A stretch of DNA of 27,851 bases. Origin: a phage. The position numbers were made by a program, and so were the translations under genes. The notes beneath the pieces are model-generated. The model saw only the letters and a list, made by a program, of their open reading frames with translations. It ran no database searches and was not told where the DNA came from. Location: the sequence record PZ583740.1; one strand, 5' to 3'. Of this stretch, positions 6,452 to 26,116 are shown piece by piece (within the stretch, counting starts at the first letter, position 1; each line of letters starts with the position of its first letter).

Positions 6452-6459
6452 GGCTTCAA

Positions 6460-6732: not shown

Positions 6733-6757
6733 TATCCCATCAACTACTGGAGACCAC

Positions 6758-7041: not shown

Positions 7042-7070
7042 TATCCCATCAACTACTGAGGGCCAAAAAA

Positions 7071-7292
7071 ATGAAAACGTATCAAGAATTTATTAACGAA
7101 GCTAAAATGCATGACGAATTGCCGATTCAATCTAAAACTTTTGATGGTACACTGAAGGATTTTAAAAAGTTGCCAAATGATAAATTGGCAAAACTTACAG
7201 GTTCTGTATCTGAAACAGGTGGTAAGGTTACTTTCTCTGCCCGTGGTATTGTCAACCTTAAAAAACTTTTGAAAGCCGTTGGTGCTGAATAA
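7071..7292 (+). CDS. Internal protein (IP)-like, capsid-targeted small protein E
   Basis: 73 aa; N-terminus MKTYQEFINE-A; GAGGG RBS. Confidence 0.65.
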   Translation: MKTYQEFINEAKMHDELPIQSKTFDGTLKDFKKLPNDKLAKLTGSVSETGGKVTFSARGIVNLKKLLKAVGAE

Positions 7293-7350
7293 AACAGTTA
7301 CTGGTCTAGTATATCATAACCTAGACCTATCAAAAAGTGAGGAGAATAAA

Positions 7351-7536
7351 ATGAAACGTTGTGAATTAATTAGAAATGTTACTGCCTTTGTTGCTGTTAC
7401 CACTTTTGGTTTTAGCATGTTTGCTGGCTTTATGTTGAATATGCTTTCAACTTCTGAGAATATAATCTCTTTAGTAGTTGCATTTTTAATTGGTTCAATC
7501 TCTTTCGTTATGGATAAAATCTCTAAAGGTGAGTAA
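7351..7536 (+). CDS. Small predicted membrane protein (two hydrophobic helices), function unknown
   Basis: ATG at 7351 preceded by strong GAGGAG RBS; 61 aa with hydrophobic stretches [23 protein letters not shown] and [17 protein letters not shown]. Track ORF 7279..7536 starts at an upstream TTG. Confidence 0.5.
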
Positions 7537-7550
7537 AATGTATAAAGTGT

Positions 7551-8519: not shown

Positions 8520-8547
8520 AAATAAAGGGCCTTGCGGCCCTTTTTTA
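8520..8547. terminator. Bidirectional rho-independent terminator between rnlB and gene 24
   Basis: Hairpin GGGCC-TTGC-GGCCC (8527-8540) flanked by an A-run upstream and T6 downstream; lies between convergent stops. Confidence 0.7.
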
Positions 8548-9825
8548 ATTTATTTCAGTCAGAACTTTAGGAAGTTTCACACCAAGCAGTACAGACATAT
8601 CTGAACGTCCTGCCATCAAATCCATATTTGTTGCATCAATAATACGAGCTTGTTTATCATCAGCAGTCACTGTATAAGGGTTAGCTGCTAACGCATAACG
8701 AACCATTAATGCAATAGACGGCTGCAAACTTTCTGGGTCAACGACAACTTTGAACGAACCAACATGTTCAGGGTCTTCCAGGTCAAGACCTTCGGTATAA
8801 GGTGCATAAAACAGTGAACCCACCATCTCTTTCCCACCGAAATCTTCTTTAACACCAACAGTCACATAATCAAATGGAGTGTTCGTATCGCAATAAAGCG
8901 GTAGACCATTATCCAAGAAACCATACGCATTATCGGAGAGATATTTCTCATCTTGTGGACGATGCTTCAACCAACCAGAACCAGCCAAAACTGCAGCTAC
9001 ACGCGTAGAAGCAACAACGTATGTTGCGGTGTAAGAAGTTGCCCGCTGAATATGGGAGACCATCTCACACATGATTTCGTACAACTTGCGTGAAGCTTCC
9101 GGAGAGTTGGTATAAGACAGGTCAATCAGGCCATCATCACAGAGTCCAGCAACTTTATAACGCTTGGAAACTGTTACCAGGGATTGCAGGATATCTTTGT
9201 TAATTTCATCAGCCATTTCGGTAGCTAACAGGTCTTCCAGGAAGTTTGGAGCGTCAAAACCATTTGCTTCCAGGTCCTGGGCCAGTTCCACTGTAACAGT
9301 GCTTTTCAGCTTACGAGATTTAACCGGAGCATTCCATTTGTTAACCAAAAATTTAGCTTCGGCAATTTCGACTTCCTGTGGTCCTTCAAAACGTTCGGTG
9401 ATTGCAGCTTCGGACATAATACGGATGGTCAATTTAACCATCGCTTCTTGAAGCTGGTCATACTCATCGCCCGTTGCTCCAGCAAATGGAGTTGCTACCA
9501 GCGCTTTATAAACTACATTTTCAAACTGGAACAAATCGTCTTTAGCATAAACTGCGCCAGCAACAAAAACCGGAATGGTCGCACGGTCTTTTGCTGATAC
9601 TGCACCAGAATAGGTTGCACCAGTCTGGAAAGATAATTCATCTTTCTGAGTCAGGTATTTAAGACCGTATAATGCCGCCAGTGGCTGGGATGTGCGCTGT
9701 TGTGCTACTAAATCGGTGTAAATCAGTTTAGTTGTAGCTCTGGTTAAAGCTACTAGATTCGGTCGACCAATCGAAGAACTTGTGGTCGTGGTCGACTCTT
9801 TTAAGAGTTCGTTAATTTTAGCCAT
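8545..9825 (-). CDS. 24: Head vertex protein gp24
   Basis: 426 aa, MAKINELLKESTTTTSSSIGRPNLVALTRATTKLIYTDLVAQQRTSQPLAALYG...; gp23-paralog fold; matches T4 gp24. Confidence 0.85.
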   Translation of the reverse strand: MAKINELLKESTTTTSSSIGRPNLVALTRATTKLIYTDLVAQQRTSQPLAALYGLKYLTQKDELSFQTGATYSGAVSAKDRATIPVFVAGAVYAKDDLFQFENVVYKALVATPFAGATGDEYDQLQEAMVKLTIRIMSEAAITERFEGPQEVEIAEAKFLVNKWNAPVKSRKLKSTVTVELAQDLEANGFDAPNFLEDLLATEMADEINKDILQSLVTVSKRYKVAGLCDDGLIDLSYTNSPEASRKLYEIMCEMVSHIQRATSYTATYVVASTRVAAVLAGSGWLKHRPQDEKYLSDNAYGFLDNGLPLYCDTNTPFDYVTVGVKEDFGGKEMVGSLFYAPYTEGLDLEDPEHVGSFKVVVDPESLQPSIALMVRYALAANPYTVTADDKQARIIDATNMDLMAGRSDMSVLLGVKLPKVLTEIN

Positions 9826-9850
9826 TGCTATTTCCTTTTGTGATATACTT

Positions 9851-9858
9851 TATTTATA
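9851..9858 (-). promoter_or_regulatory. T4-type late promoter (TATAAATA on minus strand) for gene 24
   Basis: Reverse complement of 9851-9858 is TATAAATA, 25 nt upstream of the gp24 ATG. Confidence 0.55.
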
Positions 9859-9864
9859 AAAGTT

Positions 9865-9894
9865 GTTTACAACCAGATTAAGATAAGACATAAT
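9865..9894 (+). promoter_or_regulatory. T4-early-like promoter (GTTTAC, 18 nt spacer, CATAAT) for the plus-strand 93-aa ORF
   Basis: GTTTAC at 9865-9870 and CATAAT at 9889-9894; AT-rich upstream. Confidence 0.4.
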
Positions 9895-9935
9895 GATTCC
9901 ATACTGAGTTAACAAACAAAACCTGGAGTTTAAAA

Positions 9936-10217
9936 ATGAACAAAGCAACTTTCCTTCTGAACACCTTTAAAAATCTGGAAATTGAAGTTATTGCCTTGGT
10001 CAACAAATACCCAAATGGTGTTAATGGTAATGCTCTGAACAAACTAGTTAAAAAATATGAAAACTTAGCATATGACACTGATTTCTGGTGGAATGGTAAT
10101 TATTCTACTCACACTAAAGATAAAAATGGTAACTGGTTGAAACTTCAAGAAAACAATGTTAACTTCAGAGACCTTATCAAGCGCCGGGTAGAAGTTCATT
10201 TAAATGGTATGGTATGA
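9936..10217 (+). CDS. Hypothetical protein, opposite-strand gene between head genes 24 and 23
   Basis: 93 aa ORF with GGAG RBS 8 nt upstream of ATG, own promoter-like element and a downstream hairpin terminator; no recognisable motif. Confidence 0.5.
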   Translation: MNKATFLLNTFKNLEIEVIALVNKYPNGVNGNALNKLVKKYENLAYDTDFWWNGNYSTHTKDKNGNWLKLQENNVNFRDLIKRRVEVHLNGMV

Positions 10218-10224
10218 AAACAAG

Positions 10225-10252
10225 AAAGGGACCTCAAGGGTCCCTTTTTATT
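10225..10252. terminator. Bidirectional rho-independent terminator after gene 23 and after the 93-aa ORF
   Basis: Hairpin GGGACC-TCAAG-GGTCCC (10228-10244) followed by T-run on plus strand and T-rich tract on minus strand. Confidence 0.7.
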
Positions 10253-10267
10253 TAACTTAATCTAGGA

Positions 10268-11827
10268 TTAAATTCCTTTAACATATACGCGGCGGAAGTA
10301 ACCGTTCAAGCCAAGGCTGTTAACGATGTCCGGCATGCCGTTCTGAATGCGCTTGGTCGGAGCCTGAGCAGCAGGGTCAGCAAACGGGTTGATACCGATA
10401 CCGTAACGGGTTTTGAAGCCCATAACCGGCTGGAAGTTTTTCGGGTCAGAACCACGCAGCGGGGTCAGTGCAACATATGGTGCGTAGTAGATACCAGCAT
10501 CCATTTCGTTAGCGCCTTTGTAACCGATGGTGAAGTAATCTGCACGAGCATACTGGTCGATATAGACACGGTATTTGCCACCCAGAACACCAGCGAACAC
10601 AGCTTTAGTGGTGTCAACGTTGAAACCTTTACCCAGACCCTGAGCAGCATAACTAACAGAAGTATCAACAGCAGCCAGCACGTTAACTACGTTACGGGAA
10701 GCGATGATGAAGTTACCTGCACCACGACCGGTCTGACGAGCGATTTCAGCGGCTTCTTTATCAATCTGGAACAGTAAAGCTTTGAAGCTTTCACCAGCCC
10801 AACGAGCACCACGGATATCAATCGGGTCCTGGAAGTCAAACACACCAGCTTTAGCGCCAACGGTGTTGGTCATACCAGATTTACCAACCTGAGCGGAGTA
10901 GTTAATCCAATCGATAACTTCACGGTTGATTTCCAGCATAATTTCGGTAGCCAGAATACCACTCAATTCGGCATCAGCATCCATACCATGAACAGCGCGC
11001 AGGTCCTGTGCCAGTTCGATGGAGTAGCTTGCTTTCAGCTGACGGGATTTAGCTTCGATAACTTGTTTATCGATACGGAAGCCCATTTCGTTCCACGGGT
11101 TATCAGTAGAACCGTTAAAGCCTTCCTGCAATTCGGCGATAGAAGTAGCCATACCTTCAGCGATTTCTGCCAACTTACCAGCTTCGAGCAGTTTGGTAAC
11201 TTCAGCGTCAAGTTTAGCAGCATCAGTAGCACCAGCATCAACGGTTACAGCTTCAACAGCCTGGTAGTGTGCAGAACCGGTTGCTTCGAAGAAGTGAGAA
11301 TAAATTTTACCAACTTCCAGAACTTTGCTTGCAGCCAGTGCTTCAAAAGTCTGAGCAGCGCCCTGACCAGAGAACATAGCGTTCGGAGCATACATCGGAT
11401 GGAAAGCTTCTTTAGCACCAGCAGCGACAGGGTCTTTACCGTATACTGCACGCAGTGCAAATACCTGGCCAGTCGGGTTGTTCAGAGGCTGTACGCCACA
11501 AATATCAAACGCAATCAGATGCGGGATAGCACGACGAACCATACCCATAACTGCCGGCCCAATCTGAGTTACTGCACCAGAGGTCTGGCCAGCAGCGATA
11601 TTGGTAGCATCATAACCATGGTCACCACCGATTTCAGCTTCGGTCAGGAAAGAACCAAATGCTTCGGAGATTTTTTCGTCACGGTATTCAGGAGCGGTCA
11701 GAATATCTTGTTCCTGGTTTTCAAAGATTTTAGCGATGATAGCTTGTTTAGAAGCACCAACGATTTCAGGAAGAGCTTCGTTTTCCAGCAGAGCGGACCA
11801 TTTTTGAACTAATGCATTCTTTTTCAT
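10268..11827 (-). CDS. 23: Major capsid protein gp23
   Basis: 519 aa; near-identical stretches to T4 gp23 (AIIAKIFENQE, GAVTQIGPAVMGMVRRAIP, DPKNFQPVMGFKTRYGIGINPF, YFRRVYVKGI). Confidence 0.95.
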   Translation of the reverse strand: MKKNALVQKWSALLENEALPEIVGASKQAIIAKIFENQEQDILTAPEYRDEKISEAFGSFLTEAEIGGDHGYDATNIAAGQTSGAVTQIGPAVMGMVRRAIPHLIAFDICGVQPLNNPTGQVFALRAVYGKDPVAAGAKEAFHPMYAPNAMFSGQGAAQTFEALAASKVLEVGKIYSHFFEATGSAHYQAVEAVTVDAGATDAAKLDAEVTKLLEAGKLAEIAEGMATSIAELQEGFNGSTDNPWNEMGFRIDKQVIEAKSRQLKASYSIELAQDLRAVHGMDADAELSGILATEIMLEINREVIDWINYSAQVGKSGMTNTVGAKAGVFDFQDPIDIRGARWAGESFKALLFQIDKEAAEIARQTGRGAGNFIIASRNVVNVLAAVDTSVSYAAQGLGKGFNVDTTKAVFAGVLGGKYRVYIDQYARADYFTIGYKGANEMDAGIYYAPYVALTPLRGSDPKNFQPVMGFKTRYGIGINPFADPAAQAPTKRIQNGMPDIVNSLGLNGYFRRVYVKGI

Positions 11828-11848
11828 GTGTTGTATAACCTTATTAAA

Positions 11849-12667
11849 TTAAGAAATTCGTGATGCTGCGAGAGCAGACAAGTCCGCGAAGGACAGGGTA
11901 GGCTTGGCGCCTTTTTCTTCAACTGCTTCTGAAATGTAATTCAGTGCCGCAGCATCGTCTACATTTTTATTTATAGCGGCTTCGGTGATTGGTTTGTCGG
12001 TGGGTTCTACCTGACCTTTAACCATTTCAACGATAGCGCCAATTTTGGTACCGAATGCATCAGAGTATTCCATGCCTTCTACCAGAGAACCAACTTTTTC
12101 TTTCTGAGATTCAGTCAGGTCTTTAGTTGCTTCAGTCAACGCAACTTCACGTTGGACATAATTGATATAAGCATCACGCTTAGAAACTTCTTCGAACAGG
12201 TTAGCGGTTTCTTCTTTCTGTTCAGCCAGTTCTTCCTGCATTTCTGCAACAACATCGACAGATTCTTCCGGAACAACAACGTTGTGCTCAACGAACAGTT
12301 CTTTCATGCCGGTGAACATGGATTCGAACAGGTCAGCTTTAATGCCACGGTCGACAGCCAGTTTATTTTCAGCAAGCCATTCTTTAGCAACGTGGTCCAG
12401 GAATTTAGCTGCAGATTCTTTCAGTTTTTTCTCTGCTTTTTCGTCGGATTCTTCTTTATTCTTTTCGACTTCTTCTTCAGCTTTTTCAGCGATGGCGTGA
12501 ATGTGAGATTCTGCCAGTTTGATGGCGTGTTGCTTGACGGTAGCTTCGAATACAGTGCCGAAGGTAGCTTTCGCTTCCGGGGACAAATTAACTGATTCGA
12601 AAATACTATCGAGAGCAACGGAAGCATCGATATTCTGAGCTTCAGAAATGAGTTGTTCTTTAAGCAT
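11849..12667 (-). CDS. 22: Prohead core scaffold protein gp22
   Basis: 272 aa, highly acidic coiled-coil-like protein between genes 21 and 23, as in T4. Confidence 0.8.
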   Translation of the reverse strand: MLKEQLISEAQNIDASVALDSIFESVNLSPEAKATFGTVFEATVKQHAIKLAESHIHAIAEKAEEEVEKNKEESDEKAEKKLKESAAKFLDHVAKEWLAENKLAVDRGIKADLFESMFTGMKELFVEHNVVVPEESVDVVAEMQEELAEQKEETANLFEEVSKRDAYINYVQREVALTEATKDLTESQKEKVGSLVEGMEYSDAFGTKIGAIVEMVKGQVEPTDKPITEAAINKNVDDAAALNYISEAVEEKGAKPTLSFADLSALAASRIS

Positions 12668-12696
12668 TTTGTAGTCCTGTTGTTAAGATATACATT

Positions 12697-12704
12697 TATT
12701 TATA
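12697..12704 (-). promoter_or_regulatory. T4-type late promoter (TATAAATA on minus strand) for gene 22
   Basis: Reverse complement of 12697-12704 is TATAAATA, 29 nt upstream of the gp22 ATG; overlaps gp21 stop codon. Confidence 0.5.
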
Positions 12705-13338
12705 ACGTCTTTAAAGCCTCTGCGAGAGCCATAAAGGCGTCATCGGCACTGGTATCGGCAACAGCCGTTTGTGATTCTGTAATCTGCTTTGGTTTGACCC
12801 AAGCGTCCGGAGCACTTGGCCCCCATACTGCGTCTACTCCAACCGTCAATTTAAAACCTTCATTAACGATGTTATAACCTTTTGCTGATTTAGTCAGGGA
12901 ACCAAGTCCACGACTAGATACGCCAGGAATCCAACCTGCTCTTATATTCGCAGCAAGTTTATCACCTGGACCATGGTCGCCTTCTATAATACGTGCGCGG
13001 CCATATACATCATTCCCTTTCCACCACATTTCCTCGATAATAATTGCTGCCTGCATAGGGTCAACGTTTGCACGAGGTGGATGGTTTAATTCTCCAAGAG
13101 ACTGCTTGGTTTCAACCTGTTCGACGATATAGTCCGCAACAGCTTTTTCCAAAATATGTTTAGGATAAAGTCGTTTATTACGGTTAACAACTTCAGCTTG
13201 TAGGAAAATACCTTCAATATAAAGTCCTGGCTTTAAACCGCTGCTGGAACCATCATGAGATTCCAACATCGGTACACCATCTTTAATTTCGCCCGGTTGA
13301 CCCCAGTGTTCGATTAGTAACTCTGGTTTCTGTTCCAT
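12700..13338 (-). CDS. 21: Prohead protease gp21
   Basis: 212 aa, [21 protein letters not shown]...; same length as T4 gp21 and matching sequence. Confidence 0.85.
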   Translation of the reverse strand: MEQKPELLIEHWGQPGEIKDGVPMLESHDGSSSGLKPGLYIEGIFLQAEVVNRNKRLYPKHILEKAVADYIVEQVETKQSLGELNHPPRANVDPMQAAIIIEEMWWKGNDVYGRARIIEGDHGPGDKLAANIRAGWIPGVSSRGLGSLTKSAKGYNIVNEGFKLTVGVDAVWGPSAPDAWVKPKQITESQTAVADTSADDAFMALAEALKTL

Positions 13339-13766
13339 TAATCAAGTCCGAATGCTTTACGCTTAGCTCGAGCTTTTTTGCGCTTGCGCTCTGCTCTGAT
13401 TTGCGTAGATGGGTTTGCTCTTTTCGTTTTAGTAGCCAGACGGGCAATTTGACGACGTTTAGCTTTAGAAAGACCGGTTGTTTGGAAAGCATTACGCTTA
13501 CGAGTAGCTAGGTCTTTTGTGCGGGTTAACTCACCGCGAGACGATACATGTTTAACGATAAATTCGTTAAGCTGAACACCTTCATTCAGAGCGCCGATAA
13601 CCGTTGCTTTTTCGTATTCACCGGCTGCAAACATGTTTTCTACAATAATATTTATATCGTCTTTTTCTAAGGCTTCGGATAATGAATCAAATTGTCCCTG
13701 AGCTTCTTCGGAAACACTTTCAATGTTTTCAAGAGTTAATTCGTAATCATCAGGGATAATAAACAT
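13338..13766 (-). CDS. 68: Prohead core protein gp68
   Basis: 142 aa with basic C-terminal tail; position between 67 and 21 as in T4. Confidence 0.7.
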
Positions 13767-13993
13767 TATTCATCGTCCTCATCGTCAGATTCTTTTTTGT
13801 CTTTCTTTTCTGCTTTGCCGTCGTCCTTGCCTTCATCTTCTTTAGGCTCTTCGCCTTCAATCATGATGGAACGTGCAATTTCAATCTTACGTTCTTCAAT
13901 CAAACTACCGCATACTGGGCCAATGTTTTCAGCAAAATATTTGCGAACGGCTACGAGGTCGTTTGATTTAATGGCTTCAAATAAATCATCCAT
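13766..13993 (-). CDS. 67: Prohead core protein gp67
   Basis: 75 aa with acidic C-terminus; position immediately downstream of gene 20 as in T4. Confidence 0.7.
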
Positions 13994-15567
13994 TAGAAAT
14001 CCTCTTCTTCTTCTTCAGGGTTTTGGAAACGAGCCTCTTTGGACTCCAATTCAATTTGCTTAGCTTCTTGATTAATTTCTTCATCAGACATCTGGAGGAA
14101 ATCCTTCATAGCCGTTTGATGTGAAATATATTTACCGATAAACGGTTCAGCCATCGTTAGCATATTGATTCTGCGTTCCATGATTTCTGCATCTTTCATT
14201 TCGGTGAAATAGCTATCACGGTTGAACGTAACTTTAATATTATTTAGTTCCTTGTCCCATTCCTCTTCTGAAATAATTTTTTTCAGGATAAGGTTTGTTT
14301 TAAGCGGGTCGAGGAAAACTTCTTCAAATTTATTCTGTAGCTGTCGAATCCATTTAGAGAAATTCAATTCATCGCGAGTAATTGTCGCACCTGCATCAAA
14401 CATAACGCCGCTGTTCTGGTCGTTAGGGATACGAGATAATGGAATTCGGAGCGCCTGATATAGGTTGTTCTTAAACCAGCGAACATCGTCCATATCCGAC
14501 ATGCCTTGTGCACCCGGGAGTGTATCAACTTCAGTGACTGCTTTACCATCACGACGTTGCAACCAATAGTCTTCTGTCATTGACATGTTGTGCTGTTGGT
14601 TTTTGATTTTACCCGTAGTTGCATCATATACGACACGGTTTTTCATCGTGTTCATAATATGTTGCATGTGTGCTGCTGCTTTACGAGACGGCATATTCCC
14701 GGTATCGATATAAAAGACTCGGCGGTCTGGGGCACGAGTTATACGATAAATGACTAAAGCATCTTCTAATAGTTTTAATTGGTTTGCAGGTTTAATTGCT
14801 CGTTGCAAGTATCCGATGATATTCTTGCCACAACAATCGAGTAATCCAGAATGCGCATATACAATCGCCGCACGAGGAATTTTTATTTTAGTACCTGCTT
14901 CATATATACGACCATCGGCACAATAACTTTCATGGCCAGTATCGTATACAAAATATTCTCTGTAACCGTCGACAATTTTTGTACCGTTTTCCATGCGTGT
15001 AACGATTTCACGGATGAACTGGATTTGTCTTGGGTCAAGGCGACGAAGTTCTTGAACTCCATCTTTAAGTTTTGATGGGTTGATAATTTTGTGGAAGAAA
15101 ATTCGAGAATCCACATACCAACGTTTAAAGTGGTCAGAACCTTTGCGCTCGAAATTAAGGAGGTTATTGACTTCCGAGAATTCTTCGAGGATTCGGTCTT
15201 TAATTTTCTGACTAAATTCGGTAGCATCAAGGTTAAGAGCTACAACATCTTTACCGTCTTCAAAAACGATAGCATCAGACACAATTTCTTGCACTGCGTT
15301 ATCAACTTCATAATTATTTAGTAAGTTGCGGTAGGTGTCAATTAATTCCCTGGTATTTTTTACTTCAGGTTCATTGCTCCCGAACATCTGTTGCATCAAT
15401 GCATTATACGGGACGTTTTGTTCTTGTGACTCAATTTCACGAGCCCCATCATCAAACTTCGGCCCGGTCATTGACTCTAAATTATTTTTTTCTTGTTGCT
15501 TATATTCTTGTTCATCTTCTTTAGCCCAAGGCTTAAGAAAATTTAGTATTGTGTTAAAACCTGCCAT
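13993..15567 (-). CDS. 20: Portal vertex protein gp20
   Basis: 524 aa; long stretches matching T4 gp20 ([58 protein letters not shown]). Confidence 0.9.
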
Positions 15568-15595
15568 TAGAGTCTCCGAAGTTTGTCTATTACTT

Positions 15596-15603
15596 TATTT
15601 ATA
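15596..15603 (-). promoter_or_regulatory. T4-type late promoter (TATAAATA on minus strand) for gene 20
   Basis: Reverse complement of 15596-15603 is TATAAATA, 28 nt upstream of the gp20 ATG; overlaps the stop of the upstream endonuclease gene. Confidence 0.5.
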
Positions 15604-16186
15604 TTGGAGTTCGGGTACAATTTTTATGATATCGAACAATCGCAGAGCGAGTGGACTCCGTACCACATACGGGACAAATTGCACGAGGTAAATTTAATGA
15701 TTTTCCTTTATTTGGATGTTCTTTACCAAACATAGGATTATTTTCACCGCTCATTGCTTTAGAATGGTCTGGTCGTTTTCTTCCTGATAATGCTTTGGAT
15801 TGTCTTGGACGTTTAACACCAGTATTGCTTTTATTTCTTTTATCGATAGATTCCTGTGTCCAAACCTTACCTTTCATCGACATACCAAAAAATCCATTTG
15901 GTTGAGCTAATGACATATTTATATAGTTTGGTGATTTAACCACATTGTATAATTTTTGTACTCGTAATTCTTCTTCAATAGCTTCTTCGTGCGTATTAAA
16001 TGTTTTTAAGATACGAGTTTTAAACAACTGAGGATTATCACGTAATTCATTTTTCCAAATGGTTTTATATTTTTTAGAACCAACGGAACCATGATAATTT
16101 TCAGTTATTCGTTGAATAGTTGTCGAGCCGATGTAACGACGGGGAAGGAGATTCCCCGTATATACTGTAAGATAAGTGCAATACAT
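15599..16186 (-). CDS. GIY-YIG homing endonuclease (Seg-like)
   Basis: 195 aa; N-terminal YLTVYTGNLLPRRYIGST (GIY...YIG), NUMOD3-like repeats (SGRKRPDHSKAMSGENNPMFGK), C-terminal CPVCG...HKNC zinc finger; GGAG RBS. Confidence 0.8.
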   Translation of the reverse strand: MYCTYLTVYTGNLLPRRYIGSTTIQRITENYHGSVGSKKYKTIWKNELRDNPQLFKTRILKTFNTHEEAIEEELRVQKLYNVVKSPNYINMSLAQPNGFFGMSMKGKVWTQESIDKRNKSNTGVKRPRQSKALSGRKRPDHSKAMSGENNPMFGKEHPNKGKSLNLPRAICPVCGTESTRSAIVRYHKNCTRTPI

Positions 16187-16232
16187 TCAAATTTCTCCAC
16201 TTCATTGTTTGAATGTATTTATTATGTCACAA

Positions 16233-16598
16233 TTATTCCCACCAGTCAATTGCGAACGTCGCTTCGAACGTCTCAATCTCATTATTGGAGTCCCAATCCA
16301 TCTGGACTTCCCCAACGTTGGTTGGCCACATGCCGGTAATAACAACTTCTTTCGTAACGGTCTTGCCATCACGATGGAACTGGCGGACAGTAGCGGTTTT
16401 CTTATAATCAGCAGGAGCTGCACCGGTGATTTCGTTAGTCATACCGTGACACAGATTTTGCCAATCAACAATTGCTTGACGAACTTTATGAGCATCGTCG
16501 TTATAAATCGTAATAGTCCAGTCATCAAATGTACGGTCACCCGCCACGTTGATTTTACGGTTCATGTAACCGACCGGAACTTTTTCTACAATGCCGAT
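16233..16598 (-). pseudogene. 19: Tail tube protein gp19, 5'-truncated fragment (about 42 N-terminal codons missing)
   Basis: In-frame region ...IGIVEKVPVGYMNRKINVAGDRTFDDWT...NEIETFEATFAIDWWE matches T4 gp19 residues ~43-163; an in-frame TAA at 16599-16601 and the gp11 stop at 16636 leave no room for the N-terminus. Confidence 0.6.
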
Positions 16599-16635
16599 TT
16601 ATCGCTAATGTGTTTTAGCGTGTTAGTCGTTGTCA

Positions 16636-17301
16636 TTACGATACTCGCTTATAATGGTAAAGTGAAATTGCGCCATTTGCTGTGCCACCTGATAATGTCT
16701 GGGTTGAAGTTCCAAGATATTCCCATGAACCATAACCACCGCGCGGTTGCTGTGTAATAGTCTGGCTAAGCGTACAACCATATTGAGTGAAAGGTACAAA
16801 ATTATGGTTTTGGTAGTCGTTATATGTAATATTTAATATAGACTGGTCCACACTATCAATTGCAGAGCTTGACACAATTAAACTATCAGCAACAGCCGTC
16901 AGCAAAGCATCGTTAACCTTGGAAGCAACTAATACAGCCGAATCCCCGACAATAACCTCAACTGGAATACCAAAAATGAAAAATAAAACAGTATCACCAA
17001 CCCCAGCACCAGAAATAGAACCGGTGAATTTAATTTTATCCGACTGGCTGATTGCTGCCGGAGAAAGGTTATTTGTATTAGTAATTACACTACCAACTGG
17101 AAGCTCGTATCGAAATGCGATATCATCTATTGCGCTCTGAACTGTTGGGTAAAAAATACCTTCGGTTGTCTGTGTTGCGGATGGGCCGCCGATTGCTCGT
17201 TGACCCATAACAGCCGTAATATTTTTTGATGTATTTTGAAATTCTAAGCAACTAGCAAGGCGGGAAATTACTCCAGCCTTTTTATTCGTTAATGTTTTCA
17301 T
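16636..17301 (-). CDS. 11: Baseplate wedge / short-tail-fibre attachment protein gp11
   Basis: 221 aa, M..NKKAGVISRLA...YHYKRVS matches T4 gp11 start and end; start overlaps gp10 stop. Confidence 0.8.
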   Translation of the reverse strand: MKTLTNKKAGVISRLASCLEFQNTSKNITAVMGQRAIGGPSATQTTEGIFYPTVQSAIDDIAFRYELPVGSVITNTNNLSPAAISQSDKIKFTGSISGAGVGDTVLFFIFGIPVEVIVGDSAVLVASKVNDALLTAVADSLIVSSSAIDSVDQSILNITYNDYQNHNFVPFTQYGCTLSQTITQQPRGGYGSWEYLGTSTQTLSGGTANGAISLYHYKRVS

Positions 17302-19112
17302 TAAGCAATCCTTACCCAGCGATGAGCAATCAAATATGGAGGCATTGTATAAACCGGTTGAGCTTGAGGGTCTTGTGCCTGATTAATGGTGGCTTTATCT
17401 TCTCTGTATTTGGTATAAGCTGGACCTTGTGCATCTGGGTCTACCTGGCAACCGCCGACAACAATCGGACCATTATCATCAACAACTAATACTTTCTCAT
17501 CGGTTTCAAGTTTAGGTACGTTTATATCTTTAATATGAACTTCAACACTACCACCTGTGCCGCCTGCCGTCGCTTGTGGGTTACCACCAGAATCCAGGTC
17601 ATTATTGTTTGTATGGAAGTTTGAGGCAGGGTCGTCCGACCAGGCAACGATTACACGTTCTTTCAAACGTTTCCATGAACCGAATCCCATATAAGTAACC
17701 GGGTTATTCGGGTTAACCGTATTTTCGTAAATTGTACCGACCGGATAGAATAATTCAAAGATAGCGCCAACAGAAGATGGAACAACTTCCTGAAGACCGA
17801 CTGGTTCAACGTTCGGTGCAAACGGATTATCAAAATCTGTAATACGTACACGACCAGTTAAGCTCAATGTATTTCCCTGAGAAACATAAAGAGTGTCAGT
17901 CTCATCACGGATTTCATCCATGGTCATAGTTGTGCCGATATCGTTATTGTACCAAATGACCGACAGAATATCACCGTCTTCAAATTCACGATAAATGCTA
18001 ATACCTTCGATGCGGTTGTCATCATCAAATTGCAGCAAATAATCCTGGGTTGATTCAGACCAACTGCCACCATTTGCGCTACATTCTGCCGCAGTGGAAC
18101 CTTGCGCACCTTCGCAATAAAATACTGGAGTTCCTGCAGTCCCGGCTTGGTGTTGTAAAATACTGTTAATGAATACCTGACATGCATTTGGGTTAATTGG
18201 ACTACCCGGAGAAATACCAAGTTCTTCAATTGTAAAGGTGTGTTTGGTTGTCAAATCCGTAACAATCAAAGAACCATTAATTGTTGTTTCTTTGGTCCTG
18301 TCCTGACTACGAACAAGTACATCACGACGATTATACGAACTACGCCATTGTGCAATGCCATCATTAAATGTTCGGATGATAACCGTATCACCTTCAGCGC
18401 ATGGCATTTTCAGACGGATGCTTTTACCATCAAGCGCAACGATTTCACCAGGGTTTGCACCAGGGGAACCAAATTCAGCATTCACCGGGTCGAAAATATC
18501 ATCTTTACCATAAAACAGGTCGTTACCACGATGTTTGACTTCTAAGTTCGATACGCTATACGGAATAGCACCAAACACATTGATAAAGTCAGTTTGTCCT
18601 TCGGTAGCAATAAACTGTTGGGATGCAACTGTAGCAACGTCGTTATTTGAAATTTTATCGACTTGTTTATTATCGATATATTCCCAACGACCTGGTGAAC
18701 AATATACAAGTTCAAGGTCGGCTAAGTTGCGTTTAATTTCTACTGGATTTGGTGAGCCTTTAATCGTATCCCCGACTGCAGGAACAATTGTCACCGGGTT
18801 GATTTGCCAGGTAGCAAACACATCACGCAATCGAATTACATAATTGTATTCTTGAGTTGTTCCTTTCGGGAGGACGACTCGAACCGCACCGGCTGATGTA
18901 TCGATGGTATAGCTTCGACCCATAACAGCAGACAACTCGGTGCCTTCTTGTGTAGTCCAAGTTTTCCATGCACCAGCCGCATGAGGATTTTCACCATCAC
19001 CCAGCTGATAATAAAGGTCGTCAAAGTTATTGTTTATTTTTTGACCGCCGAGACGAAGGTAATCACCAGTACCATCATCAACCATATTGCCAATTTTTAA
19101 ATTCTGTTTCAT
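17301..19112 (-). CDS. 10: Baseplate wedge protein gp10
   Basis: 603 aa, MKQNLKIGNMVDDGTGDYLR...NPNNPVTYMGFGSWK...NNDLDSGGNP...AHRWVRIA matches T4 gp10. Confidence 0.9.
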   Translation of the reverse strand: MKQNLKIGNMVDDGTGDYLRLGGQKINNNFDDLYYQLGDGENPHAAGAWKTWTTQEGTELSAVMGRSYTIDTSAGAVRVVLPKGTTQEYNYVIRLRDVFATWQINPVTIVPAVGDTIKGSPNPVEIKRNLADLELVYCSPGRWEYIDNKQVDKISNNDVATVASQQFIATEGQTDFINVFGAIPYSVSNLEVKHRGNDLFYGKDDIFDPVNAEFGSPGANPGEIVALDGKSIRLKMPCAEGDTVIIRTFNDGIAQWRSSYNRRDVLVRSQDRTKETTINGSLIVTDLTTKHTFTIEELGISPGSPINPNACQVFINSILQHQAGTAGTPVFYCEGAQGSTAAECSANGGSWSESTQDYLLQFDDDNRIEGISIYREFEDGDILSVIWYNNDIGTTMTMDEIRDETDTLYVSQGNTLSLTGRVRITDFDNPFAPNVEPVGLQEVVPSSVGAIFELFYPVGTIYENTVNPNNPVTYMGFGSWKRLKERVIVAWSDDPASNFHTNNNDLDSGGNPQATAGGTGGSVEVHIKDINVPKLETDEKVLVVDDNGPIVVGGCQVDPDAQGPAYTKYREDKATINQAQDPQAQPVYTMPPYLIAHRWVRIA

Positions 19113-19981
19113 TATACCGGTACTCCGATTGTTTGGGCGGAAATTACTTTAATAGCGAGCTTCATGGCAGTGGGTGAGCTTATAGCCGCCTGAATGATAT
19201 CCTGGTTATCAATTCTAAAATCGATGGCATATATCTCATCTTCTTCATTAGTTTGTCCACGTCTGATTACAGCGTATTCTGTGCTATATACCTTGCGGTC
19301 CTTAAGGTCGATGTAAAGTAATATTTCTGATGCTTTGTATTTAGTTTCGTCTGTTGAAATAGCTGTCAGCATCAATTTGATAGTTTTATAATCTGCGCGG
19401 AAAGCAAGTGGAATATCACGAACAACCGAGCTCATATTGTATGTTTTGTCGAGCAATACAGATTGGTTGCCAAACATACTTTCAATTTTGTAGTCCCAGG
19501 TCCCTACGCCGTTAGCATCGTCAATACACCACAATGTAATTTTTGTATAAGGCTGAGTAAATTTCATTTTGTTCGTTGCAGCAGTCAGGAATGAATCCGT
19601 GCCTTGTAGTTCAACTTCCAGAGGCAACGAGGTGGATAATGAACCATTGGAGTTAATAAAGATAACACCTTCGCCTGCTTTACCTTTTGCAATTCTTGCA
19701 GTGATAACACCTTCGGCAGTATTGACATCTCGCATAGAACCGAGAGCAACAGTCGAGTTCCATTCGATGATATTTGTGGCTTTTTGATAGTAGCCAGTCG
19801 CATGAAGTACCTGGGAGTTTTCTCCATTGTTCACAGAGTACAGACGCTGGTCGCCGAATGTATTATACAAACTGTCTAAATCCACGTTCAGTTTACGACC
19901 GCCTTCATATAGAATATCACCGGTGCTGGCGTTACCAATCTCGCCGATGTCTACTAATAATTTTGGGGTTTGATTAATCAT
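19112..19981 (-). CDS. 9: Baseplate wedge / long-tail-fibre socket protein gp9
   Basis: 289 aa, ...GEIGNASTGDILYEGGRKLN...HATGYYQK matches T4 gp9. Confidence 0.85.
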   Translation of the reverse strand: MINQTPKLLVDIGEIGNASTGDILYEGGRKLNVDLDSLYNTFGDQRLYSVNNGENSQVLHATGYYQKATNIIEWNSTVALGSMRDVNTAEGVITARIAKGKAGEGVIFINSNGSLSTSLPLEVELQGTDSFLTAATNKMKFTQPYTKITLWCIDDANGVGTWDYKIESMFGNQSVLLDKTYNMSSVVRDIPLAFRADYKTIKLMLTAISTDETKYKASEILLYIDLKDRKVYSTEYAVIRRGQTNEEDEIYAIDFRIDNQDIIQAAISSPTAMKLAIKVISAQTIGVPV

Positions 19982-20008
19982 AGGTAAGCCTCGTTATTGA
20001 TATAGCTA

Positions 20009-20016
20009 TATTTATA
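20009..20016 (-). promoter_or_regulatory. T4-type late promoter (TATAAATA on minus strand) for gene 9
   Basis: Reverse complement of 20009-20016 is TATAAATA, 27 nt upstream of the gp9 ATG, with a GAGG RBS between. Confidence 0.55.
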
Positions 20017-20020
20017 GAAT

Positions 20021-20045
20021 AAAAAAGGGACCCGAAGGTCCCTTG
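20021..20045 (-). terminator. Rho-independent terminator immediately after gene 8
   Basis: On minus strand GGGACC-UUCG-GGUCCC followed by U6 (plus-strand A-run 20021-20026); sits just upstream of the gene 9 late promoter. Confidence 0.6.
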
Positions 20046-21050
20046 TTAGAATTCAAAAATAATGTTAACTTCTTCTGTCTGGTCCATTGCACGAATAATC
20101 GGTGGGCGGTTTTCCATATAAATCATTTCCCCGGAATGACGGTCCAAATCAATTGCATCGTAGTATTCTTTGATTGCTTTGATATTTGGGTCATTAGGAT
20201 GTACTTTAACTTCAAGTGGGTTGGATATAATCGACAGCTGGCGGAAGCCTTTGTTCCCTGGAAGACTGAACTCTGGGAAATAAATGGAATCCATAAATGC
20301 TTTAAATCTGATTGTATATCCTTTGATTCTGTATATTAAACCGAAATCATCTTGTTGCCAGCTGATATTGTCTTTGTAACCCCAACGTGATGGGTCTTCT
20401 TCAATTTCTTCAGGCCATGGAACAACAATATATTCGTTAGTACAACGGTTGATGGATACATCAGGTGGAATCTCATACAAATATTCCCAGAGATAACCAT
20501 CGCCCATATCGACTCGTCCTTCTGTATCACCAGTCCCAGCTGGAGCTCTCGTCGAGTTATATTCTGCAGTCCATTTACCACCGAGTTTTAAACACTCTTC
20601 TTTATTGATAATAGAATAAATGGAGCAGGTCCCAACATCAGGAACATCTACACAGCGATAAACCATCCAACCTTTACCAACATCAGTTCGGTTATACGGA
20701 GCACTGTTAGCTACAACAATTTCCCCTACCTGGAAGTTAAGCGGATTGGGATATCTGATATCGCCCCAGTCTTTACGTGGGACAACACAATCAAGCATTG
20801 ACTTATAAACTTTGACTGCACCCATCATATTTGTCCAAGTATCTTCAACACCTTGTGCCGTATCAACCGGATAAGGCGGGGCGAACCCCGGGTCATTCTC
20901 ATTTGATGCCCAGGGTTCAGCACGACCGAATGTTACATACATCGTATTCTGGTCGGGCTCGTTGCCAATCATTTTATAAAAGTTATACATTTTTTCAGTT
21001 CGAAATTTCGAGGTAATTATCGAACGATAAACTACAGATGAATTATTCAT
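20046..21050 (-). CDS. 8: Baseplate wedge protein gp8
   Basis: 334 aa, MNNSSVVYRSIITSKFRTEKM...CTNEYIVVPWPEE...GEMIYMENRPPII matches T4 gp8. Confidence 0.9.
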   Translation of the reverse strand: MNNSSVVYRSIITSKFRTEKMYNFYKMIGNEPDQNTMYVTFGRAEPWASNENDPGFAPPYPVDTAQGVEDTWTNMMGAVKVYKSMLDCVVPRKDWGDIRYPNPLNFQVGEIVVANSAPYNRTDVGKGWMVYRCVDVPDVGTCSIYSIINKEECLKLGGKWTAEYNSTRAPAGTGDTEGRVDMGDGYLWEYLYEIPPDVSINRCTNEYIVVPWPEEIEEDPSRWGYKDNISWQQDDFGLIYRIKGYTIRFKAFMDSIYFPEFSLPGNKGFRQLSIISNPLEVKVHPNDPNIKAIKEYYDAIDLDRHSGEMIYMENRPPIIRAMDQTEEVNIIFEF

Positions 21051-24000
21051 TTACCTTTACCTGTGTGGGGTCTTTCGGGTCGCGTGGATTACCAATATCA
21101 TCCTTAAGACGTTGATTAACCAAATTGCGCCAGTTCGCAAAAGTCACGGCAGACTGGTCAAACAATGGACTGTATTTTTTACGACGTTCAGACGGGAGAG
21201 TCCCATGAAAATCTGAAAAATCGTTTTCGGCGTCATAATCTGCTGGTAATGGGAACGGTAAACCTGCGTTAGGAGCAATATTATATACTGCTTCGCCTGT
21301 AACAGCATTATGCTCAATGTTTCCATCGGCTCCAATAACTGCGATACGGTCACACCATTCTGACGGAATACCCGACGACCAACGATAGTTGTTCAGTTTA
21401 TTGATAATGGTTTCTGTGTGTTTTAATGACAGACCAGCATTAACAAACATTGTCAATAATGTAATTCCAACGAATCCAAATCCAACCGGATGAACAAATC
21501 GCAATACGTCATTACGATAACGAGATGTCGGGAGACTTGATTTAATGGTCATTACATAGTAAGAACGATTTCGGTTGATATAATCGATGTTATTGCTAAG
21601 TAATTCTTTCCCGCGAACGCCCTGAACAATCATGCCTTCAAAGGAAGTCCTTTCGGATTTAATTTCTTGCCCAACAATAAAGCGACCAAGCAAGTTATGA
21701 ATCGTGATACGCCATCTCAATTTACCCTGTTTGTAGTCACGCTCCATATAGGTAACGTTACTGCGGCCAGTTGATGTGTAAATTGTTTGCCCAACAATAT
21801 CTTCGCTGATATTATCGGATTCGACGATTATGTCATACTCGGTTCCGTTCTTGGATTCAATATCGATTTCAACGTCTTCATTATATAACAATTTGAACAA
21901 AAATTTATAGGATGCTTCAGTCCCCTTAGTTGCCCAAAAATCAGACTGTCTTGCTTCAAAGAAACGAACTACTTCGTCGCGCTTGGTCTTTGACAAATAT
22001 ATGTTTCTTTTGTACATTTCGCTCCAAAGGTATTCCCATGCATCTTCCTCGCGCGGGTACTGGTTGCGAATTAAGTTCAAAAGGTTGTTATAATATGTAC
22101 CAGAGCCATCACTGATAAACTGCAAATAATATTCACAGAATTTTTCGAAGTTGCTATCCTGGAGCAAATAACTATCCGGAACCATCTTTGTTAAAAGAGG
22201 ACGCAAGTCCGGGTCTTTCTCTTGTTCATCATTATCCGGGGTCCATGGAATATCATGTTCCTGGTTCTGTAATTCTGCAGTGAACATAACTTCTTTCGGT
22301 TTCCAGATTAATCTAACTTCATCACGCATACGATAGTCGAATTCAAAATAACCAATAAGCTCACCAGTATTTTTATGTAACATAATACCCGAGGCATATT
22401 TTTTAAAGCCATTGAATTCGATGTTAGGAGAAGTAACTTTCACTTGACCTTTATTCCAGTATTCGTGCACAATACGTTCAGGGGATGAACCACCAAAGGT
22501 ATCGATAATCTTTTGATACAGCATGTCATTATATACAACCAGAGCTCTGTCTGATGTGGTAATCCAACAACGAGTATCATCACGGCGAGACCAGTTAAAG
22601 AACGGTTCAGCGTAATATGACATACGTCCAGGTTTAAACTCTTCCCAACCTGAATCTTTATTCGACCTAAAACTCATCATCAAATAATGCTTGTCATGTA
22701 TCCATTGTTCATCATACACATATTTGACTGCTTCGTTAACTTCTTCAGGATACTTAGCAGGGAGTTCGGTATCTGGCTCAACGGAATAACGGAAGTTACT
22801 TGAACTGATAAAAAGTTCAATTCCATCAGTTGACATGCTTGTGTAACCATGTTCAATACGGCGACGTTCATCCTCTGTATTACCAAAAACTCGTGTCCAT
22901 GTATCGGTATCGGTATTTAATTTATAAACGCCCTTTGATAATGAATCGACAACGTTTTCAGGCTTAGTCGGGTCTTGGCGTTCTTCCTTTACTTCACCCG
23001 TGATTAATGCAAACACTTCACCGTCAATTGAATCCATCTTGTAACAAACAGCTTTTGGGTTGCCGCTTATTGTGCTATATCCAGCTTCAAATAATTTTTC
23101 ACCGAATGTTGGAGAGTTAGGGTCATTATCAATTGGAGCATCAGAAGATTTAGCTTTGTATACACGGTCGCGGCCAGCAACGTAAATCATGGAATCGGTC
23201 GTAGTAATTGCTTCGGCAATTGTTGAGATATACGCCGGAAGTCTTGCGTATGTGCCAAATATTTCAATATCAAATCCGAGATTGATATCTGAACCAATTT
23301 TTGCAAATGTTATATCCTGAGAACTGAATCGAACATCATCAGCAGACCATCTTATGTCACTTGATTTACGACCGTAAAAAATTCGGTCATATCCGAGTAC
23401 ATAAGTTGTCGTATCTGATTGATAATAAATTGTGCGCGATACTGGGTTACCGATACGGTCATTAAACAATTTTACATAATACCAGTTCTGCCCTTTATCA
23501 TTGGAGACTTTGACAGTTGTCTGGAATCGTTCAAACAAATACAGTACACCACCGAGTTCAGCAATCATCGTACGATTAACATCGTTACATACTGGCTGAA
23601 TACTACCCTGAATTTCGTGATATTGGTCTTCTTTTAATACATAGTTTGAAATTGAAGACAAATGAGAATAGGCAGGAGTAAAGCTAAAATCTTCAGACAT
23701 CAGCGATGCCATAATTGCATCATTATTAAAGTTGATATAAGCCTGGTTATTGTTTGTGAATTTTTCTTCGATGAATTTATTTGTTAATGTAAACTCACGC
23801 ATGTGTTCAAATGTGTATGCGTTAGTTGCAAAGGTTTCAAATTCTTCGGTATAAACCCAATCAGATTGTTCAAAACCCATTGCTGCAACAGCAACACGCA
23901 TTTTGTAAAATGATACTGGACGAATAAAATCTTGTTCGAACCATTCATTGTCTGGAGTATAACCTAAATTCCTCCATAACAGATTTTCTTCTGGAATAGC

Positions 24001-24141
24001 AACACCATTTTCTTTTGTCGGAGCAATCTCAACAAAATAATAAAAGTTGGCGCCAACATTATCCCATTTTATGCTAACCTGGTTAGCAGATAGTTTATCA
24101 ATCCGTAAGCTGGTTACATAAGGGGCTTTAACACTCATCAT
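21043..24141 (-). CDS. 7: Baseplate wedge initiator gp7
   Basis: About 1032 aa from MMSVKAPYVTSLRIDKLSANQ... with AAGGAAA RBS; long matches to T4 gp7 (DVRFSSQDITFAK, YYAEPFFNWS, RNLIRNQYPREE). Track ORF extends upstream to a non-ATG start. Confidence 0.9.
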   Translation of the reverse strand: MMSVKAPYVTSLRIDKLSANQVSIKWDNVGANFYYFVEIAPTKENGVAIPEENLLWRNLGYTPDNEWFEQDFIRPVSFYKMRVAVAAMGFEQSDWVYTEEFETFATNAYTFEHMREFTLTNKFIEEKFTNNNQAYINFNNDAIMASLMSEDFSFTPAYSHLSSISNYVLKEDQYHEIQGSIQPVCNDVNRTMIAELGGVLYLFERFQTTVKVSNDKGQNWYYVKLFNDRIGNPVSRTIYYQSDTTTYVLGYDRIFYGRKSSDIRWSADDVRFSSQDITFAKIGSDINLGFDIEIFGTYARLPAYISTIAEAITTTDSMIYVAGRDRVYKAKSSDAPIDNDPNSPTFGEKLFEAGYSTISGNPKAVCYKMDSIDGEVFALITGEVKEERQDPTKPENVVDSLSKGVYKLNTDTDTWTRVFGNTEDERRRIEHGYTSMSTDGIELFISSSNFRYSVEPDTELPAKYPEEVNEAVKYVYDEQWIHDKHYLMMSFRSNKDSGWEEFKPGRMSYYAEPFFNWSRRDDTRCWITTSDRALVVYNDMLYQKIIDTFGGSSPERIVHEYWNKGQVKVTSPNIEFNGFKKYASGIMLHKNTGELIGYFEFDYRMRDEVRLIWKPKEVMFTAELQNQEHDIPWTPDNDEQEKDPDLRPLLTKMVPDSYLLQDSNFEKFCEYYLQFISDGSGTYYNNLLNLIRNQYPREEDAWEYLWSEMYKRNIYLSKTKRDEVVRFFEARQSDFWATKGTEASYKFLFKLLYNEDVEIDIESKNGTEYDIIVESDNISEDIVGQTIYTSTGRSNVTYMERDYKQGKLRWRITIHNLLGRFIVGQEIKSERTSFEGMIVQGVRGKELLSNNIDYINRNRSYYVMTIKSSLPTSRYRNDVLRFVHPVGFGFVGITLLTMFVNAGLSLKHTETIINKLNNYRWSSGIPSEWCDRIAVIGADGNIEHNAVTGEAVYNIAPNAGLPFPLPADYDAENDFSDFHGTLPSERRKKYSPLFDQSAVTFANWRNLVNQRLKDDIGNPRDPKDPTQVKVNE

Positions 24142-24169
24142 GGTTTCCTTAAAAAGCCTCCGAAGAGGC

Positions 24170-26116
24170 TTATAGTGTAATTGGTTCAAGGTCAATCTTT
24201 GTATATTGAGGACGAAGGCCATTCTCAAATACAATCAGTGAACCATCTTGCGTGTATATATTATCTTGGTTAGGACTTGCATAAAGTTCGATTGATTGAA
24301 CTTCAAAGCGCTCGGAGGTCAATCCAATCGCGGCGATATCCCAAAAAATATAATCAGAGTAATAGTCAATTTCGCCAATTGCGTAATAAACTGTTTGGTC
24401 AGCCGGAGCTTCCATTTTATTAAAGTCATCTTGTAGGTAAGGCTGAATGTTTACGTTTTCAATAACATCGCCTGGACGGAATGGACCAATTACCATTTTA
24501 CCATCACCACGAGAATCTTTATCAGTTGCAACAATGCGAACGTTATAGGCTTCACCCGTGGTCGGAACAAATTCAAATTCACTTGATTCGACTGAACGGT
24601 TGCCATACTGGTTATAGTATTTAATGCCGGATTCTGGAGTCTTAAAGAAGTTCAGGACTTCACGCACCATCGAAATGGTTGCAGATGAACCAAGAATACT
24701 ATGGTCAGTATTATCCACATACGTAAGCATTTTTGACTTAGCAAAACTTCTGTTAAAGATTTCAACTTCATCGATATAATAACGGTCAATCTGATTAATG
24801 ATTTGTGCTTGCAACCATTGTTCAGATTCTTGTAATTTGTTCAGCGCATAAGATACTTTGATATTATGTTTAAGAAACAAATAATCCGGAGAAATTACCG
24901 AGGGTGTAATTGTTGATACGTTGAACTCACTAAGATAGTTCTGGATGTCCTCACGCTGCACTGCAGTGAGATACAAGCCCGATTTAGGCTTAACTGATAT
25001 AAACGCATACCCAGGCTTATTTGCGTCTGTAAACGTCTGTACGGCTTGCACGATTGAACCAAATCTTTCAGATACGAAGGTATCATAATCTGTTCCGGTG
25101 ACAGCACGCATCTGCGCTTCACGTTTAACAACAGCCAGTTCACGGATACGTTCGATATCTTCTGGGTCACCGCCGCCATCGGCACCGACATAATCAGGGT
25201 CGTTGTTGTAGTTTTCAGTAATTTTATCCACTGTGATATAAGACAAAGTATCGGCATAACTGAAATCAACAGCACCGTTTGCATCTGCCCCTGAGGTGCG
25301 AAGATATTCAATAACAATTGTCGAATCTTGCACAGGTTTGAGACCGCCAATATAGTTGGCTTCCATAACGCCGCCGGCTACGGATTTGGTGGATTCACCT
25401 TCACCGAAGAAAAATTCAGTATAGTCATCGATTGTTTCACGCATATAAAATATGGTGGAAGTCGAACCAGCATGGACCATTGATTTGTTCGTCCAGTCAA
25501 CCCACTCAACACCGTTCACATATAACTTAACTTCTTTGCGGTCGATATCCGGGTCGCGAATAAGAATAGGTTGTTTCGGGTCATATAAAAGTTCTGTACG
25601 AATAATACGACCCTGGGCTAGAGATACAATCGGAAGGTATTGGTTGTTAATATCTTTAACCGCAATAACGTTTTCCGTGGTAACAAAAACATAAGGGTCA
25701 GCTGATGTATCACGAGCATAGGCCAGGAATTTAGTTCCTCGTGGGATTTCGATATTCGATGGTTGCAGAGCATGAGAACATGTCAGCATAACCGAAGTCT
25801 TTGCGGCCGAACGTGAAGATGGAAGATATCCATTATCCTGTGCCGCCTGAACAACCGAAGACCTTAAGTTTGCAGTTCCGATAAATGATTCGTAAACTGC
25901 CGTGTTAGCAAACTGTTGCATATACAATGTATTGTATGCAAGCATATCAATCAGGATATTCATTCGCGAACCGACGAAATCATAATCCTTAAATTCATCC
26001 TGGCTTGATAACCAGTCGATGATGTTCTTTTTAATTTCTTCAAACGTAGCTCCCACAAATACTTTTGGGATAGCGTTAACGGTTCTTGTTAATTGGTAAT
26101 TCGTAGGAGTAGCCAT
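24170..26116 (-). CDS. 6: Baseplate wedge protein gp6
   Basis: 648 aa, [22 protein letters not shown]...GADGGGDPEDIERIRELA...SLIVFENGLRPQY matches T4 gp6. Confidence 0.9.
   Translation of the reverse strand: MATPTNYQLTRTVNAIPKVFVGATFEEIKKNIIDWLSSQDEFKDYDFVGSRMNILIDMLAYNTLYMQQFANTAVYESFIGTANLRSSVVQAAQDNGYLPSSRSAAKTSVMLTCSHALQPSNIEIPRGTKFLAYARDTSADPYVFVTTENVIAVKDINNQYLPIVSLAQGRIIRTELLYDPKQPILIRDPDIDRKEVKLYVNGVEWVDWTNKSMVHAGSTSTIFYMRETIDDYTEFFFGEGESTKSVAGGVMEANYIGGLKPVQDSTIVIEYLRTSGADANGAVDFSYADTLSYITVDKITENYNNDPDYVGADGGGDPEDIERIRELAVVKREAQMRAVTGTDYDTFVSERFGSIVQAVQTFTDANKPGYAFISVKPKSGLYLTAVQREDIQNYLSEFNVSTITPSVISPDYLFLKHNIKVSYALNKLQESEQWLQAQIINQIDRYYIDEVEIFNRSFAKSKMLTYVDNTDHSILGSSATISMVREVLNFFKTPESGIKYYNQYGNRSVESSEFEFVPTTGEAYNVRIVATDKDSRGDGKMVIGPFRPGDVIENVNIQPYLQDDFNKMEAPADQTVYYAIGEIDYYSDYIFWDIAAIGLTSERFEVQSIELYASPNQDNIYTQDGSLIVFENGLRPQYTKIDLEPITL

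Follow-up and report, generated by a model that had tools for sequence, protein, structure and literature searches.

A truncated tail tube gene beside gene 11 in a T4-like phage sequence: most probably a non-biological join of three genome segments

In the tail and packaging region of T4-like phages, genes occur in the conserved order 11-12-wac-13-14-15-16-17-18-19-20. This order is broken in the window analysed here (the whole stretch of phage DNA, 27,851 nt, record PZ583740.1), where gene 12 beyond its first 41 nt and all genes up to gene 18 are gone and the tail tube gene, gene 19, is truncated. The locus raises the question of whether these genes were deleted or relocated in a real phage, or whether two distant loci were joined outside the cell. 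If the arrangement were true, it would be of real interest as a defective or satellite-like derivative: a T4-like genome without terminase, sheath, neck proteins, and short tail fibres.

The gene 19 fragment and the 16595/16596 junction

The window represents a T4-like coliphage of the genus Gaprivervirus (Tevenvirinae). The closest complete genome is that of Escherichia phage vB_EcoM_RZ (Gaprivervirus arezed, NC_070780.1, 170,318 bp; approximately 98% identity), hereafter RZ, and further similar phages include DK-13, P479, the TH phages, VR26, and Shigella phage SP18. The features at the locus are as follows.

16233-16595, minus strand: 3′ fragment of gene 19 (tail tube), codons 44-163 and the stop codon
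16595/16596: blunt junction (J2) between RZ 110266 (gene 19) and RZ 98473 (gene 12); the blastn alignments abut without overlap or filler
16596-16636, minus strand: stub of gene 12 (short tail fibre), first 41 nt
16636-17301, minus strand: intact gene 11 (baseplate wedge/tail pin), PF08677, E = 6.5e-28

The gene 19 frame on the minus strand reads ...*R*IGIVEKVPVGYMNRK...AIDWWE* and ends at 16233. The original prediction had placed the beginning of a truncated gp19 frame at about codon 43, and codons 44-163 are indeed present, with 120/120 amino acids identical to gp19 residues 44-163 of both RZ and a related Logan contig (L003). The fragment matches PF06841 (Phage_T4_gp19) with 36.1 bits versus a cut-off of 28.2 (E = 6.9e-9, profile positions 38-133 of 134), and the identities proposed for gp19 and gp11 are thus both borne out by Pfam. 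An in-frame stop lies two codons upstream of the fragment, and the distance to the gp11 stop is 37 nt, both as had been described. The leading isoleucine codon of the frame (16598-16596) derives from gene 12 and not from gene 19.

Codons 1-43, the N-terminal quarter of the protein, are missing, and these 43 residues have no match anywhere in the window (tblastn, E ≤ 1e-3). The fragment has neither a start codon nor a ribosome-binding site of its own; its first ATG is at 16565, and no start occurs before Met-55. The window ORF therefore lacks the length (163 aa in the genus), the start, and the N-terminal 43 residues of full-length gp19.

At the nucleotide level, 16233-16595 corresponds to RZ 110628-110266 with 98.1% identity (blastn). 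There are 7 mismatches in 363 nt and, since the protein is identical despite them, all are synonymous. This is the signature of a functional gene that has been under purifying selection until the present rather than of a relic. Because the remnant is undecayed, the join would be either extremely recent or one that never existed in vivo.

On the other side of J2, gene 11 is intact, with its product 99.1% identical to RZ gp11 over 221 aa. The ATG of gene 12 at 16636 overlaps the gene 11 stop codon (16636-16638) and opens a stub of 13 codons, MTTTNTLKHISDK, which matches the N-terminus of RZ gp12, MTTTNTLKHISDKSEYK, and then runs out of frame into gene 19 sequence as SAL and a stop. The RZ alignment on this side starts at 98473, which is 41 nt into the gp12 coding sequence (start at 98433). 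The cut falls within a codon of gene 12 and between two codons of gene 19, whose frame does not continue that of the gene 12 stub. Gene 19 had been described as abutting gene 11; the adjacency at the junction holds, but the direct neighbour is the 41-nt gene 12 stub and not gene 11 itself.

A total of 11,792 bp of RZ is skipped at J2, comprising the remainder of gene 12, wac, 13, a homing endonuclease gene, 14, 15, 16, 17, 18, 19.1, and gene 19 codons 1-43. The absence of genes 12-18, which had been estimated as a loss of roughly 11 kb, is thus confirmed. It had also been proposed to look elsewhere in the assembly for gp12-gp18 and an intact gene 19; within the window there is no intact gene 19, and RZ gp12, Wac, gp13-gp18, and gp19.1 have no match in it (tblastn, E ≤ 1e-3). 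The skipped DNA encodes the two terminase subunits, the sheath, the neck proteins, and the short tail fibres, all of them known from T4 genetics to be essential.

Three blocks, a second junction, and the arrangement in relatives

Alignment of the full window with RZ 76000-125000 by blastn resolved it into three blocks, with 97.7-99.0% nucleotide identity across them.

1-7564, Block A: RZ 86795 down to 79891, 98.6-99.0% (blastn, RZ annotation); 5′ 419 nt of gene 5, 53, 4, an endonuclease gene, 2, a homing endonuclease insert, 3, 1, 57A, 57B, and internal head protein genes
7565-16595, Block B: RZ 118722 down to 110266, 98.1-98.3% (blastn); truncated rnlB, 24, 23, 22, 21, 68, 67, 20, the seg-like gene, and truncated gene 19
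16596-27851, Block C: RZ 98473 down to 87883, 97.7-98.3% (blastn); truncated gene 12, genes 11, 10, 9, 8, 7, 6, a segA-like insert, 5.4, 5.1, and the 3′ end of gene 5

The same split into three blocks recurs against all top relatives and not with RZ alone. All blocks have a single orientation, and their order is colinear with the circular map. The window starts (RZ 86795) and ends (RZ 87883) within gene 5, at positions 1,087 bp apart, so that the three blocks are pieces of one 39-kb region. The block lengths ascend (7564, 9031, and 11256), which may or may not be meaningful.

Blocks A and B meet at a second junction, which lies within about 9 kb of J2.

7564/7565: blunt junction (J1) between RZ 79891 (codon 9 of a tRNA.3-like small gene) and RZ 118722 (nt 54 of rnlB)
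7565-8519, plus strand: rnlB (RNA ligase 2) without its first 53 nt; PF09414 and PF18043 matches

Between the two loci joined at J1, the circular map measures about 131 kb in one direction and 38.8 kb in the other. Here rnlB is cut mid-codon. RZ RnlB begins MFKKYNSLENHYNNKFIEKIRLQGF..., and the window carries a 322-aa ORF (7551-8519) that reads MRIIR and, from the junction onward, KIRLQGF...; this is rnlB minus 17 codons, with an in-frame ATG borrowed by chance from Block A. A partial GenBank record of Shigella phage fPSFA covers the J1 region and runs on normally into tRNA genes. This 23-kb record was also considered as a possible similar patchwork and was rejected, as the contig is normal and colinear.

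Several smaller differences from relatives were observed within the blocks. The prohead core protein gp67 (13766-13993, minus strand) has 75 aa, versus 86 aa in RZ and 84 aa in both L003 and a 72-kb ENA scaffold (L005); its acidic C-terminal tail seems to have changed length in frame. A 93-aa ORF (9936-10217, plus strand) is located on the opposite strand between genes 24 and 23, and its RZ equivalent (116069-116350) is annotated as a hypothetical protein. In addition, the metagenomic scaffold L005 contains two tandem genes for gp24-like vertex proteins (15408-17972; 426 and 427 aa), where the window and RZ have one.

With regard to the arrangement in other genomes, J2 is spanned by none of 130 related phage records (BLAST), in each of which its two halves are approximately 11-12 kb apart, and J1 is likewise spanned by no related record. 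The canonical order with an intact gene 19 is found in all relatives examined, including metagenomic contigs whose Seg-like or portal protein is identical to that of the window. Logan contigs L003 and L004 have the gene for the exact 195-aa Seg-like protein flanked by gene 20 and by a gene 19 of full length (163 aa), itself preceded by 19.1, 18, 17, 16, 15, 14, and 13; similarity of these contigs to the window (97.9-98.0%) stops exactly at 16595. The exact portal protein occurs on scaffold L005, again with the canonical wac-13-...-19-20 order.

Exact 24- to 40-mers spanning J1 or J2 are absent from viral, metagenome, and genome contig collections, a weak negative given that few close relatives are present there and that two flank-only controls in the viral contigs gave one match and none. 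The comparison with the 130 phage records is the stronger one. No exact protein is on record for the truncated gp19 ORF, the chimeric rnlB ORF, or gp11. An integrated or plasmid-borne T4-like remnant was considered as well and rejected for lack of a match in E. coli genomes or plasmids. In the records and collections searched, neither junction recurs in an independent sequence or sample, as a natural deletion would be expected to do.

These comparisons bear on the idea of a viable phage with a rearranged gene order, in which genes 12-18 and an intact gene 19 were relocated and a gene 19 remnant was left beside gene 11. Only 27.9 kb of the genome is visible, and the genes could in principle sit outside the window. 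However, such a phage is extremely unlikely: the module is strictly syntenic in the 130 related records and in metagenomic relatives, the remnant protein is 100% identical to functional gp19 instead of a decaying relic, and the gene 12 stub is cut mid-codon. In addition, a second, unrelated rearrangement would be required for J1, where rnlB is truncated and the gene 57/ip region comes to lie beside gene 24.

The Seg-like endonuclease gene and related inserts

A Seg-like endonuclease gene lies directly beside the gene 19 fragment, and its position next to the junction had been pointed out in the original prediction. Relative to RZ, each block carries one insert of approximately 650 bp with a free-standing homing endonuclease gene (inserts at 3066-3723, 15586-16232, and 26118-26791).

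3053-3727, plus strand: homing endonuclease ORF between genes 2 and 3 (Block A)
15599-16186, minus strand: free-standing Seg-like homing endonuclease gene, 195 aa, within a 647-bp insert (15586-16232) between genes 20 and 19 (Block B)
26116-26793, minus strand: segA-like ORF between genes 6 and 5.4 (Block C); PF01541 and PF19835 matches, GIY-YIG

The 195-aa ORF matches two homing endonuclease families, PHROG 10820 (E = 3.1e-32) and PHROG 314 (E = 4.6e-26). It matches no Pfam family, including GIY-YIG, at E ≤ 1e-3, and a YLTVY...YIGS motif was read in it by eye only. The 647-bp insert is absent from RZ (blastn) and is a clean insertion. In Citrobacter phage Moon, Kosakonia phage 305, Pectobacterium phage PM2, and Enterobacter phages, the same 19/20 site by the tail tube gene holds homologues with 70-73% DNA identity. 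Homing endonuclease genes have thus landed repeatedly between genes 19 and 20 across genera, and the insert is much less conserved than these two flanking genes. At the other two insert sites, those in Blocks A and C, endonuclease genes are also carried by fPSFA and VR26, the gene of VR26 at the Block C site being segA.

It could be supposed that the endonuclease triggered the deletion: it would have cut both strands within gene 19, and the break would have been wrongly rejoined to a distant one in gene 12. Enzymes of the Seg type cleave close to where their genes are inserted, and the gene is only about 50-410 bp from the breakpoint. On the other hand, the gene for the identical protein stands beside an intact gene 19 in L003 and L004, as do its homologues in three other genera, and this coexistence gives no support to a causal link to J2. 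In T4, homing endonuclease breaks are mended through gene conversion with a homologous sequence, J2 shows no homology, and classical end-joining is, to our knowledge, lacking in both T4 and E. coli. J1 would also be left unexplained, and the probability of such an event is practically negligible. The Seg-like gene is a natural mobile element of T4-like genomes, unrelated to J2, and the hint of a link between the two is not supported.

The nature of the joins and comparison with known systems

At J1 as at J2, one blastn alignment with RZ stops exactly where the next starts, and the two neither overlap nor leave bases between them. When each side was compared with the continuing RZ sequence, the microhomology was 0 bp in both cases. 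The longest word shared by the surroundings of the paired breakpoints (±150 bp) is 7 nt, versus a median of 8 nt for random window pairs from the same genome, and no common motif was found by inspection among the six breakpoints. Scans for tRNAs, Rfam families, and promoters or terminators gave nothing at or near J2. Both joins are intragenic at arbitrary positions and out of frame with the upstream gene stub. Neither of them shows the repeat or microhomology that is expected of a natural T4-type deletion.

A real defective mini-genome has nevertheless to be weighed. It would be a circular or concatemeric molecule of approximately 28-29 kb that arose from a T4-like phage through several homology-independent (illegitimate) joins. 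It would depend on recombination-dependent replication and be packaged as head-to-tail multimers with the help of a wild-type phage, as a DI-particle-like parasite that keeps the head, baseplate, and gene 5-6 region. Plasmid concatemers can be packaged by T4, and T4 oriE is close to the region of genes 5 and 6; both points would favour such a molecule. The shared orientation and circular colinearity of the blocks are also what successive deletions would leave. Furthermore, T4-type phages have been reported to form encapsidated mini-circles (PMC2839356), the only relevant paper found in the literature on illegitimate recombination in T4. They are products of recombination between PeSL cassettes that are repeated in hyperplastic, non-essential regions (Arbiol et al. 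2010, PMC2839356). J1 and J2, unlike PeSL-mediated events, are intragenic with 0 bp of homology. Two independent blunt events, or three if the window ends are counted, would be required in one molecule, and in a circle a third junction, in gene 5, would have to fall precisely at the point of linearisation. The truncated genes are undecayed, and the J1 and J2 junctions are found in no collection searched. The probability that such a mini-genome exists is accordingly slight.

Taken together, J2 is very probably a non-biological join: one ordinary Gaprivervirus genome would have supplied three non-adjacent segments that were linked directly, with no spacer. The window is built of three blocks, both of its joins are blunt, its genes show no decay, and its relatives have the canonical arrangement. 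The non-biological join is preferred because two blunt, homology-free intragenic joins, ends that nearly meet in gene 5, undecayed remnants, the loss of a dozen essential genes, and universal canonical synteny all coincide. There is also more than one abrupt discontinuity (J1 and J2) in otherwise normal sequence, as is expected of a chimera. The original prediction had left open a real deletion or an assembly or window-construction join; the second blunt join, the non-adjacent blocks, the lack of microhomology and of decay, and the canonical relatives favour the join and argue against the deletion.

The segments would have been joined outside the cell by concatenated or chimeric assembly (such as draft contigs or a bin without Ns), by chimeric long reads, or during construction of the window or record. 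The origin would accordingly lie in silico or in library preparation or assembly, and not in replicating DNA. In the actual phage, gene 19 would be intact and genes 12-18 would not be lost but lie in the omitted 11.8 kb. De Bruijn assemblers normally form chimeras at shared k-mers. No k-mer is shared at the joins, which makes classic de Bruijn repeat collapse an unlikely type of artefact here; instead of a simple misassembly of this kind, the joins would require concatenation, chimeric long reads, or construction of the sequence in silico. With random concatenation of three contigs, the common orientation and colinearity would be expected in only about one case in 8, whereas they follow automatically from successive deletions. 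Because the blocks share orientation and circular colinearity, an ordered process is suggested over random concatenation, for example reference-ordered concatenation or excision from a permuted full-length contig with its ends in gene 5.

The feature is therefore best treated as not real, and a defective or miniaturised phage is a very unlikely reading of it. Findings on this window that rely on adjacency across 7564/7565 or 16595/16596, or on the absence of genes, should be discounted. These include the 322-aa rnlB ORF, the 110-aa gene 19 ORF, and operon or synteny arguments across the joins.

Among known systems, each block of the window resembles the late-gene module of Gaprivervirus and other T4-like phages (RZ, NC_070780.1; DK-13; VR26; SP18), with 97.7-99% nucleotide identity, the same genes, and the same order within the block, and its homing endonuclease inserts are at sites used in other T4-like phages. 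It differs in that loci separated by 11.8 kb and approximately 131 kb in the relatives directly abut. The 195-aa ORF is similar to the free-standing Seg-type (GIY-YIG) homing endonucleases of T4 in that it matches homing endonuclease PHROGs and is carried on a discrete 647-bp insert between conserved genes, but differs in having no Pfam GIY-YIG match at E ≤ 1e-3.

PeSL-mediated shuffling and mini-circle formation (PMC2839356) is comparable as a documented T4-type route to the deletion of DNA or to small circles made from parts of the genome. However, PeSL events take place at promoter/stem-loop cassettes in non-essential genes, whereas the breakpoints in the window are inside essential structural genes and have no repeat. 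With regard to chimeric or concatenated contigs, the window differs from classic de Bruijn repeat collapse in that no k-mer is shared at its joins. It is like them in switching abruptly between distant loci of one genome, in having arbitrary, intragenic joins without homology or filler, and in the undecayed state of the flanking sequences.
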